A stretch of DNA of 12,824 nucleotides from a virus (lineage: Duplodnaviria > Heunggongvirae > Uroviricota > Caudoviricetes): IMG/VR virus record IMGVR_UViG_2740892209_000012, one strand, 5' to 3'. Made by a program: the position numbers and the translations under genes. A model generated the notes under the pieces. The model saw only the letters and a list, made by a program, of their open reading frames with translations, was not told where the DNA came from and made no database searches. Shown here in pieces: positions 1,561 through 6,328 of the stretch. Position 1 is the first letter of the stretch. Each line of letters begins with the position of its first letter.

Positions 1561-1843
1561 GGGTTAAAAATCAGCCATCGTAATAACCATTTGATTTTTA
1601 TAGGTGTACTGTTTTTTTATACACTGGCGAATCACTCTTAAAAATATGTAAAAAAGGCGTAAAAGTAAAATTTTATGCCTTTGCATCATAATGAATTAAA
1701 AGAGTTTTTATTCTCATTCCCCCTGCTTCTGTAAAACGACCGCCGCCAGTGTTTGCCATTCCACAAACACCCTGACACAATCCGACACAACCCAACCCAA
1801 TAATCCACCCAATGACTCTTTAAGAAACAACAAAGGGGGAATT

Positions 1844-2032
1844 GTGTTAAGCACAGATCGCTTTATACGTGAAAAAGAATGTCAGCAACTTACAGGCCTG
1901 AGCCGCTCATGTCGGTACCGCCTGGAAAAAGCCGGACAATTCCCATCACGGCGTAAGCTGGGCGGTCGTTCCGTTGGCTGGTCTTTATCCGAAGTTTTGG
2001 CATGGAAGGACAGCTGCGAGGCAGTTCACTAA
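1844..2032 (+). CDS. alpA: AlpA/Vis-family HTH regulator (excision and transcription activator type)
   Basis: 62-aa ORF with GTG start preceded by AAGGGGGA Shine-Dalgarno; FIREKECQQLTGLSRSCRYRLEKAGQFPSRRKLGGRSVGWSLSEVLAW matches the AlpA-type small HTH pattern; position immediately downstream of int as in Gram-negative PICIs. Confidence 0.8.
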   Translation: MLSTDRFIREKECQQLTGLSRSCRYRLEKAGQFPSRRKLGGRSVGWSLSEVLAWKDSCEAVH

Positions 2033-2084
2033 TCAGGCTGGCGGCACACAGCCGCCACCCATCCACTAATACAGAGATCTAACC

Positions 2085-3371
2085 ATGAATACTGGATATT
2101 CTCCCGAACAAGGGCGGGGCTTCGTTCGTCCTGAAAAACAGAATCTGCAAAATTTTGCCGAAATTATTCCGGTTATTTCCGGCCTTACTGGCGGGAGTGA
2201 AACCAATATTGTTAACGCCAGAGCGTTGCAGATGTTTGATGATAAAAAGGGAGTAAATTTAACTTACACCCCTGACGGCAATCAGAATATGAGCATTATC
2301 TCTGAGTCAGGTTTCTACAAACTAATAAAAACAAAAAGCGCCCCGTTGCCGGAGCGCCTTTGTGAACAATTAACCTACTGCGCAAAAAATGAATCTGAGC
2401 AGTGGGATTATATCAACCATGTGGAGAAGCGCCACAATTGCCGAATAACGGGCAAAACAAAGGCCACCCGCTACAGTGGCCCCTCGACACAAGCTACACG
2501 TTATCCCCAACGCATGAGCATTGCCAACAATGCCACATTTGCGGCTGGTGGGCAATGCAATCAGTCTGGTTCAGTTCGTTGCCATACCTGCAATGAGCGC
2601 TTTTCCCTGTACTCTTTAAGGAATTGCTCAAGGGCAAAAGCACATGGCGCGAATCTTTCTGATTCATGCTCTATCTTTCTGCGCCGTCTTTTCCGTGCCG
2701 GTGATAATGTTTTGGTCAATTCTTTATCGGTCATTGTGTTGTCCTGCATAGCAATGCGCCGTAGTTACTCACACCACGGCGCTGGTGATGGTTACTCCTG
2801 CTCTTTGGCCTTGCGGCGCTGGCGGCGTTTGATTTCGCCGCGCATGGCTGCGTTTATAAACTGTCCCGTGCTTTCGCCTTCTTCTTTCACGTTCTCCATG
2901 CCTTCAATAATTTCATGGGCAATACGTGCAGTTACAGATTGTGATTTTGCATTCTTTGGACCCGTTGCCATGTTTAACCCCTCATGTTTTTGGTGTAAGA
3001 CAATATACACGAAAAAAAAATATTTTGAAGGGTTGGCGTGTAAGACACCATTGTTTTACATTGTGTCTTACACCTTATTGATGAAAGGCACAGAAACGAC
3101 GAAACCCCGCACTGTAGGAGCAGTAACGGGGCTTCTAACCACCAACGATAGCAACAGTATCGAGGTAGCTATGAGAAATCATACCACACACCCGAAAGGG
3201 CGGGACTCGCACAACCTGAATAAATACATCTGGCGTTTTATCGCCCTGAGCACGGCACAACCGCGCGTGATTACCATTGAGGCCACCAGCGAACAGGAAG
3301 CACGCCAGCAATCTCCGGCTGGCTGCGTGATGGTATTTGCTGCCCGTATTCGTCAGGGGGTAGGCTTATGA
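2085..3371 (+). CDS. Questionable 428-codon open frame; probably not one gene. Only the N-terminal ~85 codons look protein-like (BRO-N/antirepressor-like ISESGFYKLI motif)
   Basis: No stop for 1287 nt, but the central part is Cys/Ser/Arg/Leu-rich junk-like translation, runs antisense to a well-supported small minus-strand gene (2792-2971), and reads through an AT-rich operator/promoter region (2993-3080). The 3' end coincides with the Icd-like ORF starting at 3171. Confidence 0.2.
   Translation: MNTGYSPEQGRGFVRPEKQNLQNFAEIIPVISGLTGGSETNIVNARALQMFDDKKGVNLTYTPDGNQNMSIISESGFYKLIKTKSAPLPERLCEQLTYCAKNESEQWDYINHVEKRHNCRITGKTKATRYSGPSTQATRYPQRMSIANNATFAAGGQCNQSGSVRCHTCNERFSLYSLRNCSRAKAHGANLSDSCSIFLRRLFRAGDNVLVNSLSVIVLSCIAMRRSYSHHGAGDGYSCSLALRRWRRLISPRMAAFINCPVLSPSSFTFSMPSIISWAIRAVTDCDFAFFGPVAMFNPSCFWCKTIYTKKKYFEGLACKTPLFYIVSYTLLMKGTETTKPRTVGAVTGLLTTNDSNSIEVAMRNHTTHPKGRDSHNLNKYIWRFIALSTAQPRVITIEATSEQEARQQSPAGCVMVFAARIRQGVGL
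2324..2357 (-). terminator. Candidate intrinsic terminator for leftward transcription
   Basis: Stem GCGCCCCG (2338-2345) / CGGAGCGC (2350-2357), loop TTGC; on the minus strand it is followed by TTTTTGTTTTTATT (complement of 2324-2337). Confidence 0.35.
2792..2971 (-). CDS. Small basic hypothetical protein (59 aa), candidate autoregulated regulator
   Basis: Minus-strand ATG at 2971 preceded by GAGGGG Shine-Dalgarno (6-nt spacing); protein-like K/E-rich composition (MATGPKNAKSQSVTARIAHEIIEG...KRRQRRKAKEQE); promoter-like -35 TTCAAA / -10 TATATT upstream with a GTGTAAGACA operator-like repeat overlapping the -10/start region. Confidence 0.5.
   Translation of the reverse strand: MATGPKNAKSQSVTARIAHEIIEGMENVKEEGESTGQFINAAMRGEIKRRQRRKAKEQE
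2993..3073. promoter_or_regulatory. Divergent promoter/operator region with three GTGTAAGACA half-sites
   Basis: GTGTAAGACA at 2993-3002; perfect 11-bp inverted repeat GTGTAAGACAC (3038-3048) / GTGTCTTACAC (3063-3073) with a 14-bp spacer; lies between the minus-strand small gene and the plus-strand Icd-like ORF; -35-like TTTACA at 3055-3060 on the plus strand. Confidence 0.55.
3171..3371 (+). CDS. Icd-like small protein (host cell division inhibitor-like family seen in P1/P4-type immunity regions)
   Basis: ATG 3171 preceded by GAGG (5-nt spacing); 66 aa; the YIWRFIALSTAQPRVITIEATSEQEARQQSPAGCVMVFAARIR pattern resembles recalled Icd-like proteins; stop overlaps the next start (ATGA at 3368-3371). 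Confidence 0.45.
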   Translation: MRNHTTHPKGRDSHNLNKYIWRFIALSTAQPRVITIEATSEQEARQQSPAGCVMVFAARIRQGVGL

Positions 3372-3598
3372 GCCAGGAAATCACACTACAACAGGCAGCA
3401 GAACGCGCCCACCAAATCGAAGTTATTTGCGCACTGGCAGAGGATTACCCTAGCATGATGACCGACAGCGAATCAGGGGCAATCATCGGCTTACTTAAAC
3501 GCCTTAGCGGTGAGGTCTGCGTATTCCTGAGCGATGAACAGGAAAGAAGAACGCTTATTTCTAACGAAAAAAAATGCGGAGGGGTACATGTGCAATAA
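3368..3598 (+). CDS. Hypothetical protein (76 aa)
   Basis: ATG 3368 with GGGGG Shine-Dalgarno; ATGA overlap with the upstream ORF; overlaps the next ORF start by 11 nt. Confidence 0.55.
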   Translation: MSQEITLQQAAERAHQIEVICALAEDYPSMMTDSESGAIIGLLKRLSGEVCVFLSDEQERRTLISNEKKCGGVHVQ

Positions 3599-3818
3599 AA
3601 CCACACCGGACGCAGCAGAAGAAGCAATGCAAATACTGATACGTGCGCTCGTTGATGTTACCCACATGGTGGAGATTATGGAGAGAAAATCACAGTCGGA
3701 GCACGACAAAAGAAAACTTAAAACAATAAAAATAATTGCCAAAAACTCGCTGATAAAAGTTACAGACATCCTTAATGAGGACATTAAAAGAATAAGGGAG
3801 AAAATTTGTGATGCATAA
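3588..3818 (+). CDS. Hypothetical small protein (76 aa) in AT-rich segment
   Basis: ATG 3588 preceded by GCGGAGGGG Shine-Dalgarno; the ORF track extends it upstream to 3534 but the Shine-Dalgarno supports 3588; helical K/E/I-rich composition. Confidence 0.5.
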   Translation: MCNKTTPDAAEEAMQILIRALVDVTHMVEIMERKSQSEHDKRKLKTIKIIAKNSLIKVTDILNEDIKRIREKICDA

Positions 3819-4043: not shown

Positions 4044-4343
4044 ATGAAACTTAAATATTCTGGCTTAACTGCCAGTGGCAAAACTCGCACTAAATTCATG
4101 CGCGGTGATATTTACCGCGACCAGTACGGCGGCACGGTAATGATTAAGGGCGTGGAGGAACGGCGCGTAACCTACCGTCGTGAAGGCTACGAATATGATT
4201 GCGTGATGCCTGTTTATCAGTTCGATCGTGATTTTTCTCTGGTGCAGGCCGTACCGCGTAACGTGCCCACCAGCAGGGAGAAAGCACGCGCCAATATTCA
4301 GGAAATAAAAAAGATGCTTAACGTATTCAGGGGTAAGAAATGA
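4044..4343 (+). CDS. Hypothetical basic protein (99 aa), translationally coupled to the primase gene
   Basis: ATG 4044 with GGAGA Shine-Dalgarno; stop TGA 4341-4343 overlaps the primase ATG 4340 (ATGA). Confidence 0.65.
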   Translation: MKLKYSGLTASGKTRTKFMRGDIYRDQYGGTVMIKGVEERRVTYRREGYEYDCVMPVYQFDRDFSLVQAVPRNVPTSREKARANIQEIKKMLNVFRGKK

Positions 4344-6088
4344 AACTGGCACCGAACGTAAAAAAACAACCACGCGGAATAAAACACAAAGACACAGAGG
4401 TAATTATTTTCGCGGGTAGTGATGCGTGGTCACATGCAAAACAGTGGCAGGAGCAGGACGGCCCCGCATCCGGCGATAATGTGCCGCCTGTGTGGCTTGG
4501 GCCAAATCAGCTTGCCGAACTTGATGCGCTGAAAATTGTTCCGGATGGGAAAAAGCGCGTAAGGCTGTACCAGGCCGGAGAACTGGATTTGGTGGAGACC
4601 AAAAAGATTGGTCAGAAGCTGGCGGCGGCAGATATTCAGGACGCAAATTTTTACCCCGAAGGAATGCACGTCCAGAAGTGTGAAAACTGGCGGCGCTATC
4701 TGAATGCTGAGCGTGAAAATATTGCCGCAGGGCTTACCATGCCGGAGCAGAAAAATACGCAACTGGCACAAATGGCAGACAGTGAGCGCGCGCAGCTGCT
4801 TGCCGAGCGCTTTGATGGCGTTTGTGTGCATCCTGAAAGTGAAATCGTTCACGTATGGCGCGGCGGGGTATGGTGTCCGGTCAGCACAATGGAGCTGAGC
4901 CGCGAAATGGTGGCGATCTATTCAGAGCACAGGGCCACTTTCAGCAAGCGCGTAATCAATAACGCCGTGGAAGCGTTAAAAGTTATTGCCGAACCAATGG
5001 GCGAGCCGTCCGGCTATTTGCTGCCGTTCGCCAATGGTGCGCTTGACCTGAAAACGGGGGAATTTTCCCCGCACACGCCGGAGAACTGGATCACCACGCA
5101 CAACGGCATTGAGTACACGCCACCAGCACCAGGGGAGAACATCCGCGATAACGCGCCAAACTTTCATAAATGGCTTAAGCACGCAGCCGGAAAAGACCCG
5201 CGCAAGATGATGCGTATATGTGCCGCGCTGTACATGATTATGGCGAACCGGTACGACTGGCAGATGTTTATTGAGGCCACCGGAGACGGCGGGAGCGGTA
5301 AAAGTACATTCACACACATAGCCAGCCTTCTGGCAGGGAAACAGAACACGGTAAGCGCTGAAATGACATCGCTTGATGATGCTGGTGGACGTGCGCAGGT
5401 TGTCGGGAGTCGTCTTATCGTCCTGGCTGACCAGCCGAAATATACAGGCGAAGGAACGGGCATCAAGAAAATCACGGGCGGTGACCCCGTGGAAATTAAC
5501 CCGAAATACGAAAAGCGTTTCACGGCTGTAATCAGGGCGGTGGTGCTGGCGACCAACAATAACCCGATGATATTCACCGAACGGGCCGGAGGTGTGGCAC
5601 GTCGTCGCGTGATTTTCCGTTTCGACAATATCGTCAGTGAGGCCGAAAAAGACAGGGAGCTACCGGAAAAGATCGCGGCTGAAATCCCTGTCATTATCCG
5701 CCGATTGCTGGCGAACTTTACCGACCCTGAGAAGGCACGGGCTTTACTACTGGAACAGCGTGACGGTGATGAAGCACTGGCAATAAAGCAACAGACGGAT
5801 CCGGTTATTGAGTTTTGCCAGTTCCTGAATTTTCTGGAGGAAGCGCGCGGCCTGATGATGGGGGGCGGTGGCGATTCAGTGAAGTACACGACCAGGAACA
5901 GCCTTTACCGCGTCTATCTGGCGTTTATGGCATACGCAGGCAGGAGCAAACCGCTAAACGTAAATGACTTTGGAAAGGCTATGAAGCCTGCCGCAAAAGT
6001 TTACGGACATGAATATATTACGCGGAAAGTTAAGGGGGTAACGCAGACTAACGCAATAACAACAGACGAGTGCGACGCGTTTTTATAA
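4340..6088 (+). CDS. Primase/replication initiator with D5_N-like and SF3-helicase P-loop domains (P4 alpha C-terminal type; PICI pri-rep-like)
   Basis: 582-aa ORF; FANGALDLKTGEF motif (D5_N-like), Walker A GDGGSGKST, Walker B-like RLIVLADQ; immediately followed by an iteron array. Confidence 0.9.
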   Translation: MKLAPNVKKQPRGIKHKDTEVIIFAGSDAWSHAKQWQEQDGPASGDNVPPVWLGPNQLAELDALKIVPDGKKRVRLYQAGELDLVETKKIGQKLAAADIQDANFYPEGMHVQKCENWRRYLNAERENIAAGLTMPEQKNTQLAQMADSERAQLLAERFDGVCVHPESEIVHVWRGGVWCPVSTMELSREMVAIYSEHRATFSKRVINNAVEALKVIAEPMGEPSGYLLPFANGALDLKTGEFSPHTPENWITTHNGIEYTPPAPGENIRDNAPNFHKWLKHAAGKDPRKMMRICAALYMIMANRYDWQMFIEATGDGGSGKSTFTHIASLLAGKQNTVSAEMTSLDDAGGRAQVVGSRLIVLADQPKYTGEGTGIKKITGGDPVEINPKYEKRFTAVIRAVVLATNNNPMIFTERAGGVARRRVIFRFDNIVSEAEKDRELPEKIAAEIPVIIRRLLANFTDPEKARALLLEQRDGDEALAIKQQTDPVIEFCQFLNFLEEARGLMMGGGGDSVKYTTRNSLYRVYLAFMAYAGRSKPLNVNDFGKAMKPAAKVYGHEYITRKVKGVTQTNAITTDECDAFL

Positions 6089-6102: not shown

Positions 6103-6328
6103 TGTCTACCCTGTCTACCTGAGTAAAGAAAAATACATTTAATTCAGTGCATTAAGTTAGGTAGATAGCCTTTTTTTACTGTCTACCCACTATCTACCCT
6201 CTCTACCTGATTTTACCTGAATCAGACAGGGAGGTAGACACGGGGTAGATAGTGGATAAAAGCACTCTACCCCGCTGAAAGCCGCGCCATTACTGGCATG
6301 AGGGCCACTAAGGTAGATAAGGTAGACA
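6103..6328. repeat. Iteron-type replication origin
   Basis: About 11 copies of TGTCTACC / TATCTACC / CTCTACC and the inverse GGTAGACA / GGTAGATA in both orientations (e.g. 6103-6110, 6112-6119, 6160-6168, 6180-6188, 6191-6199, 6233-6240, 6244-6252, 6312-6319, 6321-6328) around an AT-rich spacer, directly downstream of the replication protein gene. Confidence 0.7.

Follow-up and report, generated by a model that had tools for sequence, protein, structure and literature searches.

Gram-negative phage-inducible chromosomal islands (PICIs) carry directly after the regulatory gene alpA a region that has been described as the 'Bro zone' (PMC10111431). In the part of that paper that deals with P4, which cites Forti et al. 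(1999, J Bacteriol 181:5225), translation of the P4 gene eta is said to prevent termination, with the result that read-through from the late promoter takes place, and kil is described as a truncated form nested in eta. Here, an open reading frame (ORF) of 428 codons was analysed that is located at positions 2085-3371 (plus strand, ATG start) of a virus sequence of 12,824 nucleotides (nt), IMG/VR record IMGVR_UViG_2740892209_000012; this whole stretch is called the window. An earlier note on the same DNA had correctly described the frame as open over 1287 nt, and had taken it for a probable composite artefact in which only an N-terminal fragment looks coding. As far as can be judged from sequence, the ORF is most likely the PICI counterpart of P4 eta, with a kil-like icd gene nested in frame, and what sets it apart is above all its passage antisense to a leftward operon.

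The window contains an integrase gene (228-1478), alpA, small rightward genes, a primase gene of the D5/DUF5906 type (4340-6088), head-related genes and, at the right end, phoQ. Positions 1800-3600 are 93.8% identical to the chromosome of Escherichia coli CFT073 at the island EcCICFT073, with the same gene order, and matches to this part were found in 1761 of 5426 complete E. coli genomes. With int, alpA, primase and packaging genes co-oriented and a close similarity to the reference island, the window is a PICI of the EcCICFT073 type. The identity to the CFT073 island therefore assigns the long ORF to the part of a Gram-negative PICI that lies just downstream of alpA.

Relation to P4 eta and to Bro-zone antirepressors

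ORF 8812->8168 of P4 has its start on the stop codon of vis, the alpA homologue (ATGATGATG over TGA). Its residues 161-208 match the Icd-like family NF033153 (E 1.4e-20), and M150 begins the nested kil of 65 amino acids (aa). The same architecture is found in the window, where the long ORF begins at the 3' end of alpA (ATG 2085 lies 52 nt after the alpA stop), ends in a short in-frame Icd-family gene with its own start, as kil forms the last 65 codons of eta, and is situated upstream of the primase operon. The two loci also carry differences. The P4 gene has 197-214 codons and is co-directional with its surroundings, whereas the window ORF has twice that length and passes, in antisense, a leftward operon of two genes (ylcI and a small basic gene), its terminator and its operator region. 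In addition, eta contains the CI RNA, the seqA immunity elements and an internal promoter, while the window ORF carries antirepressor remnants.

The last 66 codons (363-428) are a genuine Icd-like gene nested in the long frame. Residues 381-424 of the long ORF match the 48-residue NF033153 domain with E 2.9e-18 and 65.7 bits (cut-off 25), and the sites that vary among relatives are distributed over the three codon positions as 11/14/24, as in coding sequence. The gene is preceded by its own Shine-Dalgarno sequence (GAGGT, 6-10 nt 5' of the ATG), its stop overlaps the ATG of the next gene (ATGA at 3368-3371), and in relatives it is annotated by the Prokaryotic Genome Annotation Pipeline (PGAP). 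A search of 1.84 billion representative proteins was performed for Icd-like proteins. Among the best 150 matches the domain is at the extreme C-terminus in 127, of which 91 have at least 100 aa upstream (median upstream length 216 aa); the layout of a long frame with a nested icd is therefore general. The upstream parts of the long proteins are Ser/Cys-rich and acid-poor, and of ten distant representatives tested, seven hold no Pfam domain at all and three have a Phage_ASH domain beside the Icd-like one.

The other end of the frame is derived from antirepressors. Like the BRO-N, AntA and Rha genes of the Bro zone (PMC10111431), it is positioned directly after alpA, and such genes are the homologues of codons 1-48 and 46-81; they occur intact, with the same leader, in locus L024 and in the Salmonella locus L089. 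The suspected truncated, BRO-N-like antirepressor remnant is thus real, and is in fact a chimera of two antirepressor genes; the relation of residues 1-48 to an AntA/Rha-type N-terminus, like the Icd-like nature of codons 363-428, goes beyond the earlier note. When residues 1-105 were used as query, AntA-type antirepressors shared residues 1-48, BRO-N proteins shared residues 46-81, and one protein of 175 aa (P0008) combined a window-type N-terminus with a complete BRO C-terminus, as an intermediate chimera. Residues 1-48 share 85% identity with the first 48 residues of L024's intact antirepressor (266 aa), and the Rha protein of L089 is 86% identical over residues 6-33; P0013 and P0014 are further antirepressor relatives of this part. 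For the second part, intact BRO-N proteins are 61-81% identical over residues 48-84, PHROG anti-repressor families match the same residues (E 8e-6 to 1e-3), and the fragment shows 71% identity to residues 45-95 of the BRO-N protein of L089. Homology to intact BRO-N members (P0018, P0019, P0022) stops at residue 81.

Unlike in the Bro-zone genes, neither domain is complete in the window. The profile search of the N-terminus that had been advised gave a partial Bro-N match (PF02498, residues 49-87, E 0.013), which with 16.6 bits stays below the cut-off of 25.6 bits and covers half of the profile (34-81 of 96). No AntA or Rha domain (PF08346 / PF09669) was matched in the ORF with Pfam at E up to 1, only residues 1-48 aligning with intact members, and residues 1-29 had no match in phage genomes. 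The remnant also differs from the Bro-zone genes in having no codon-position signature of selection (variable sites 4/6/3, without third-position excess). Together with the nested icd, this speaks against the view that only the N-terminal fragment looks coding.

Alignment places the junctions at about nt 2228, between the antirepressor N-terminus and the middle of BRO-N, and at about nt 2327, where the rest of the frame follows. The intact layout is seen in the Salmonella loci L089 and L090, in which a Rha-type antirepressor of 263 aa, sharing its leader with the window, comes after alpA; the ATG of a 180-aa BRO-N protein overlaps the Rha stop, and the ATG of a further ORF overlaps the BRO stop. 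This last ORF reads across the terminator sequence (..KSAPLPERLCE..), and its end is 32 nt 5' of the icd ATG. The N-terminus of the window ORF is a chimeric relic of two antirepressor genes, consistent with two in-frame deletions in such an intact layout.

The immI operon of phage P1 comprises the c4 RNA, icd and ant, in the order icd then ant, and is controlled by the c4 antisense RNA. There, as in the window, an Icd-family gene and an antirepressor gene belong to one translationally coupled unit; in the window, the antirepressor remnant precedes icd and no c4-like RNA was detected.

Conservation of the open frame

Related loci were fetched through the AlpA protein, and are for that reason unbiased for or against the ORF. 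They comprised 10 E. coli contexts, 69 IMG/VR contigs and one Shigella locus, the latter being the only useful one from a scan of genome contigs with AlpA, in which each species is represented once. The AlpA protein is identical in EcCICFT073-type islands, and alpA carries the signature of purifying selection (variable sites 9/0/30). The first three relatives compared are strongly diverged under ylcI and in the control region, yet all three have the long frame open. In nearly all loci, 52-57 nt separate the alpA stop from an ORF of 247-497 codons that opens with a conserved leader. The motif Y.PE.GRGF(V/A)RP of this leader is kept across 34 distinct sequences, with synonymous changes only in codons 7, 12, 13 and 15, and variable sites among close variants are distributed as 1/1/5.

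Between alpA and icd, 74 distinct intervals were found, which are highly mosaic and range from 731 to 2590 nt. All of them are tiled by one to four long plus-strand ORFs, and in 45 there is just one ORF, which is fused to icd in the same frame. Most of the non-fused loci have the stop of the ORF 8-32 nt 5' of the icd ATG, in one case within its TAGGAG Shine-Dalgarno sequence. In loci with intact antirepressors (L024, L034, L035 and the Salmonella loci L089 and L090), the ATG of the next ORF overlaps the antirepressor stop, and this ORF, of 230-606 codons, either reaches the icd stop or ends no more than about 30 nt from the icd ATG; in L024, L034 and L035 it has 453-606 codons and reaches the icd stop. 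The frame is kept despite the loss of one leftward gene (L007, 361 codons) and despite the insertion of an extra one (L004 and L005, 476 and 478 codons), with different ylcI and intergenic modules (L001, L003, L006, L008) and with duplicated modules (L022, L052).

The other five frames are full of stops (2.5-7.5% per codon). For the stop statistics, the sequences were made non-redundant at 75% identity, and the leader and the antirepressor-derived parts were excluded. In segments that are not opposite leftward ORFs (804 codons), about 60 stops were expected from the other plus frames and 2 were seen, both of which are hand-over stops between tiled ORFs. In segments opposite leftward ORFs (874 codons), the other plus frames predict 48 stops and none was seen. 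Because antisense frames differ in stop content, a frame-specific null was also measured from the confident genes of the window, giving 2.5-4.8% stops per codon; the frame with shared third positions, to which the long ORF corresponds, has 3.1%. Under this null, at least 22 stops are expected opposite the leftward ORFs against none seen (P ~2e-12 at 3.1%). A test of whether indel lengths are multiples of 3 in BLAST alignments was discarded, being dominated by compensating gaps of 1-2 nt in mosaic sequence.

The middle of the frame, codons 82-362, has neither the third-position excess nor the gene-like codon usage of an ordinary gene under purifying selection. As had been noticed, its translation is rich in Cys, Ser and Arg (5.3%, 11.0% and 7.8%, against 1.2%, 4.3% and 6.5% in real proteins of the window). 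Variable sites in segment B (2328-2560) are distributed as 35/35/27, without a coding signature. In the ylcI overlap they are distributed as 22/34/48 over the positions of the long frame, and the least variable of these is position 2 of the minus frame, so it is the minus gene, ylcI, that is constrained. Protein-level constraint is thus missing beyond about codon 81, in line with the earlier note. Its expectation for coding potential scored per frame also held, in that the minus frames win in 2561-2971, where ylcI scores best of any frame (+0.40), yet the plus frame is kept open there. The antirepressor remnant scores best in the plus frame, the scores of segments B and F are close to zero, and the log-odds of codons 82-362 lie between -0.43 and +0.07, compared with +0.2 to +0.4 for real genes.

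Judged from these comparisons, what selection keeps is the open frame, that is, uninterrupted translation, and not the amino-acid sequence of the middle. Full-length homologues of about 428 aa, named earlier as evidence that would speak against an artefact, accordingly exist as regards openness and length, but not as regards a conserved amino-acid sequence. The description as an artefact is wrong because the frame is eta-like, appears to be maintained by selection and holds a real nested icd.

A related arrangement was observed in L086-L088, which have a different integrase, a 67-aa gene without Pfam match in the alpA position and adjoining terminase-related genes. In these loci, an intact 149-aa BRO-N gene is followed after a gap of about 90 nt by a bridging ORF of 310 codons, which has its own ATG and its end 32 nt 5' of the icd ATG, so that a further PICI lineage has the bridge as well.

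A proposed translated bridge and its alternatives

The long frame probably serves as a translated bridge by which transcripts driven by AlpA get across the opposing operon. When a helper phage turns on alpA, transcripts from the alpA promoter would enter rightward a region that is otherwise transcribed leftward. Ribosomes would initiate at ATG 2085 and stay behind the RNA polymerase while it crosses the hairpin of the leftward terminator, the ylcI operon in antisense and the operators. In this way premature termination would be averted, either Rho-dependent, on pyrimidine-rich untranslated antisense RNA, or hairpin-dependent, and ribosomes would also be delivered to icd and to the translationally coupled replication genes up to the primase. 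A role in anti-termination is supported indirectly by the conserved openness, by the hand-over geometry and by the coupled ORFs, which form an unbroken chain from 2085 to the primase stop at 6088 (overlaps at ATG of -4, -11, -8, +5 and -4). A more specific model, 'ribosome escort', holds that PICIs of the E. coli type keep hundreds of arbitrary codons stop-free across an opposing repressor-type operon, its terminator and its operators, so that on induction by a helper the AlpA-dependent transcripts bypass the leftward control of the island, with the GRGFVRP leader and the covarying hairpin upstream of icd as control points; this may well apply, although we trust it slightly less than we doubt it.

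A reporter fusion to 'ORF3' of EcCICFT073 was found to be alpA-dependent (PMC6092414). From the gene order, ORF3 should be c1487, the CFT073 copy of the long frame, and the alpA-dependence of the reporter fits transcription from the alpA promoter into this frame. In Pseudomonas aeruginosa, AlpA itself acts by processive antitermination, by which RNA polymerase reads through terminators downstream of its promoter (PMC7969949, PMC9371919). The PICI AlpA also activates downstream genes (PMC6092414), but the read-through agent proposed for the PICI is the ribosome and not AlpA.

Several points weigh against the translated bridge or against its likeness to P4. Translation of the frame, and its acting as anti-termination, are points that we infer from what the analysis shows, namely the anatomy of the locus, the homology of its parts, the conserved openness, the missing amino-acid constraint, the hand-over geometry and the parallel with P4. 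The frame is interrupted in a few relatives (L009, L015, L049 and the proteins P0002, P0006, P0007 and P0015); therefore, either it is not indispensable or those islands are decaying. On its plus strand, the bridge has only a modest excess of C over G (GC skew of about -0.06 to -0.14). A rightward promoter may be present inside 2972-3170, in which case icd would need no read-through. While eta starts over the vis stop, the window ORF has no overlap with alpA, being separated from it by the 52-nt gap, and its Shine-Dalgarno sequence is weak. Rfam gave no CI/C4, isrK or other credible family, neither for the whole window (E up to 1) nor for 1990-3420 (E up to 10), so a P4-type immunity RNA is unsupported here and the P4 immunity circuit is not reproduced. 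The pairwise similarity of the window ORF to P4 eta is not significant (E 0.57), and the link to P4 is made by the common C-terminal family and by position. Finally, the window AlpA had no match to P. aeruginosa AlpA among solved structures, a sequence search of PDB matching only the AlpA-family structure 8c3t, so antitermination by AlpA itself is an analogy only.

Were the frame a chance composite, an antirepressor remnant would happen to be in frame with stop-free antisense and intergenic DNA and with icd, and nothing would maintain it. Long chance shadow ORFs do occur in the window, for example one of 241 codons antisense to the primase gene (5164-5889, minus strand), and the stretch 2561-2971 resembles them in being antisense to real genes, sharing third positions with them and having an antisense-type composition. 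The lack of amino-acid constraint and the poor codon usage of the middle point the same way, as does RefSeq, which leaves the long ORF unannotated. Shadow ORFs, however, are not conserved across unrelated variants, nor do they run on through intergenic DNA or hand over within a few bases. The frame is open in 74 distinct mosaic relatives, also after whole-gene insertions and deletions; about 60 plus 22-48 stops were expected in non-redundant sequence and 2 were seen, the 75% filter arguing against an effect of near-clonal loci; and where the frame does stop, the stop is 8-32 nt from the next start, in an architecture like that of P4. A chance origin is therefore very improbable. No greater credence is due to the idea that stops are avoided for a non-translational reason, such as DNA-binding sites or RNA structures constrained on both strands. 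The region does have operators, a terminator and at least two conserved hairpins, but local constraints of this kind would not clear just one frame over 1 kb in a dozen unrelated variants.

Two other explanations accept that the frame is translated or kept open. The product could be a functional Eta-like fusion protein, itself under selection, with a fast-evolving modular 'Bro-network' N-terminal region and an Icd-like domain. PMC10111431 treats such genes, P4 eta included, as domain-swapping Bro-network proteins, and the leader peptide is conserved at the amino-acid level. Most Icd-like proteins in the databases are long with a C-terminal domain, and Phage_ASH adjoins it in 3 of 10 distant examples. 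The middle, however, lacks a third-position excess and has the composition of antisense sequence, and the constraint in the ylcI overlap follows the minus frame. About 40% of the distinct loci do not have one ORF fused to icd, but are split into two to four ORFs at varying places or stop before icd, and whole segments have been swapped, deleted or inserted with no common sequence kept. We thus consider a selected fusion protein unlikely. It is a little less likely still that the frame is open only to deliver ribosomes to icd by termination and reinitiation, or to melt the hairpin at 3105-3131, without any protection of the transcript. The short distance between the stop of an unfused bridge and the icd ATG, with one stop inside TAGGAG, would suit such coupling, as would the covarying hairpin just upstream of icd and the tight coupling of the downstream genes. 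A short upstream ORF would be enough for this, yet 250-600 codons are open back to alpA or to the stop of the antirepressor, and icd has a good Shine-Dalgarno sequence of its own outside the hairpin.

No master repressor is known for Gram-negative PICIs, as noted by Fillol-Salom et al. (2018, PMC6092414). A frame selected for translatability would be a concrete link in the route from alpA induction to expression of the replication genes. If the translated bridge is true, ribosomes keep transcription from the alpA promoter alive head-on through the leftward ylcI module, as reported for P4 eta, and the locus would be a clean case in nature of selection that acts on the continuity of a reading frame and not on its sequence. 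The annotation of such loci is also affected. An identical 428-aa sequence appears in GenBank under the name 'host cell division inhibitor Icd-like protein', and the CFT073 homologue c1487 is found on 452 contigs. The annotations are in conflict, in line with the over-extension by gene callers expected in the earlier note: GenBank applies the name 'Icd-like protein' to the ORF of 428-430 aa, and to thousands of entries of 300-500 aa, whereas RefSeq uses it for the 66-aa one and annotates only the Icd-like gene of 66-95 aa, ylcI and the 57-aa gene, with 2033-2560 left empty. Much of the apparent protein diversity that has been read as domain swapping in the Bro zone may be antisense or intergenic sequence that is merely kept open.

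Features along and under the long frame

The coordinates of the features are collected in Table 1.

Table 1. Features between alpA and the end of icd, in positions of the window.
Feature	Position	Strand	Evidence or remark
alpA (AlpA-family regulator)	1844..2032	+	Pfam Phage_AlpA, E 3e-18; directly upstream of the long ORF
GC-rich hairpin GGCGGC-acaca-GCCGCC	2036..2060	+	in the 52-nt spacer between alpA and the ORF; no U-tract
428-codon eta-like ORF (proposed bridge)	2085..3371	+	ATG start; flagged in the earlier note
Conserved leader peptide, M..(G/E)Y(S/T/A)P(E/V)(Q/R)GRGF(V/A)RP, 16-20 aa	2085..2135	+	34 distinct leader sequences
AntA/Rha-type antirepressor N-terminus remnant (aa 1-48)	2085..2228	+	homology to intact antirepressors
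Middle-of-BRO-N fragment, cut on both sides (aa 46-81)	2220..2327	+	partial Pfam Bro-N; intact relatives
Segment B, proposed translated spacer / 3' untranslated region of leftward operon	2328..2560	+	open; other frames all contain stops
Intrinsic terminator of leftward operon	2361->2334	-	12-pair stem, then TTTTTGTTTTT U-tract; -20.5 kcal/mol, z -5.0
Small basic leftward gene	2561..2749	-	likely true start 2734 (57 aa; 62 aa from 2749); phrog_21027, E 1.6e-15
YlcI/YnfO-family gene, 59 aa, complete	2792..2971	-	NF041551, E 5.2e-18
Divergent control region	2972..3170	.	operator-like repeats and leftward promoter-like site 3029->3002; crossed by the long frame without stop
Conserved hairpin CCCCG...CGGGG (3105-3131, inner ACTG/CAGT helix) with invariant CTTCTAACCACCAACG tail	3105..3147	+	24-66 nt 5' of icd ATG
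Icd-like (P4 kil-like) gene, 66 codons (363-428), in the same frame	3171..3371	+	NF033153, E 1.4e-19; phrog_6196, E 6e-45

The spacer hairpin between alpA and the ORF is present in every leader variant (fold of 2030-2090: -17.3 kcal/mol, z -4.3), and the Shine-Dalgarno-like sequence of the ORF is GAGA, 9-12 nt 5' of ATG 2085.

The terminator-like hairpin suspected on the minus strand is real and strong, although it lies at 2361->2334 and not at 2324-2357. The plus-strand form of the hairpin is weaker (-13.7 kcal/mol), with only UUUGUG after it, and the long ORF reads through it. By inspection, a small hairpin (TTGCCG-aataa-CGGGCAA) is present in the stretch of segment B that codes for ..ITGKTKAT.. 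residues. Distant long ORFs that end in Icd also have the peptide motif GKTKA(T/A), at the very start of P0127 and P0157, and this recurrence hints at a conserved nucleic-acid element in the 3' untranslated region of the leftward operon.

The long frame does run antisense to better-supported genes and through an operator region, as had been stated; these are ylcI, the gene of 57-62 aa and three copies of GTGTAAGACA. Both minus-strand ORFs are in one frame with two stops between them, also as described. The further proposal that 2561-2749 is a decayed continuation of 2792-2971 was not upheld. The YlcI-like protein reaches 64.8 bits with NF041551 (cut-off 30, profile 1-42 of 42) and is matched over its full length by phrog_949 (residues 1-59 on profile positions 1-61 of 61); because the family profiles match end to end, the protein is complete and needs no continuation. 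The downstream 57-aa gene belongs to a family of its own, is annotated by PGAP in relatives as 2561-2734, and has a good Shine-Dalgarno sequence before the ATG at 2734. Its diverged homologues in L004 and L005 keep the motif ERFAPCAF.LE.FLKEYR, and it is missing from L007, where ylcI is intact. The idea that YlcI is a ribbon-helix-helix repressor was considered and dropped. A single-sequence AlphaFold model (predicted local distance difference test, pLDDT, 83) consists of two helices; neither Foldseek with this model against PDB nor a PDB sequence search gave anything significant.

Between ylcI and icd, the three copies of GTGTAAGACA are located at 2993-3002, 3038-3047 and, inverted, 3064-3073, and two of them make a 14-nt inverted repeat (3038-3051/3060-3073). 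Other variants of the control region carry different palindromes by inspection, such as TGTGCGCACA repeats in L061, L072 and L082, which suggests that the palindromes are module-specific operators for the leftward gene products.

The hairpin upstream of icd covaries: in 24 distinct variants, 93% of cells are paired, 6 of 8 pairs are changed on both sides, and 0 of 500 shuffles were as good. It has no U-tract, and we take the order of hairpin and then tail to recall loosely the boxB-boxA signals of rrn type. A long-range pairing between the leader and this hairpin, considered on inspection since both contain CGGGGCTTC, was rejected as unsupported, because leader types and hairpin types assort independently.

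Two icd-type modules are found in tandem in some relatives (L022, L047, L052, L058), the upstream icd copy being fused into the next bridging ORF. Some of these relatives (L022, L047) carry a P4-like kil leader (..GAGGAGGCTGCCAACATGGCT, MATTPTL..) that is close to the sequence upstream of P4 kil.

Just 3' of the primase gene, a long imperfect inverted repeat is present at 6175-6256, which surfaced only as a spurious sub-threshold match to mir-135 (E 0.31). PICI replication origins have been reported downstream of pri, and this repeat could be part of a replication origin.

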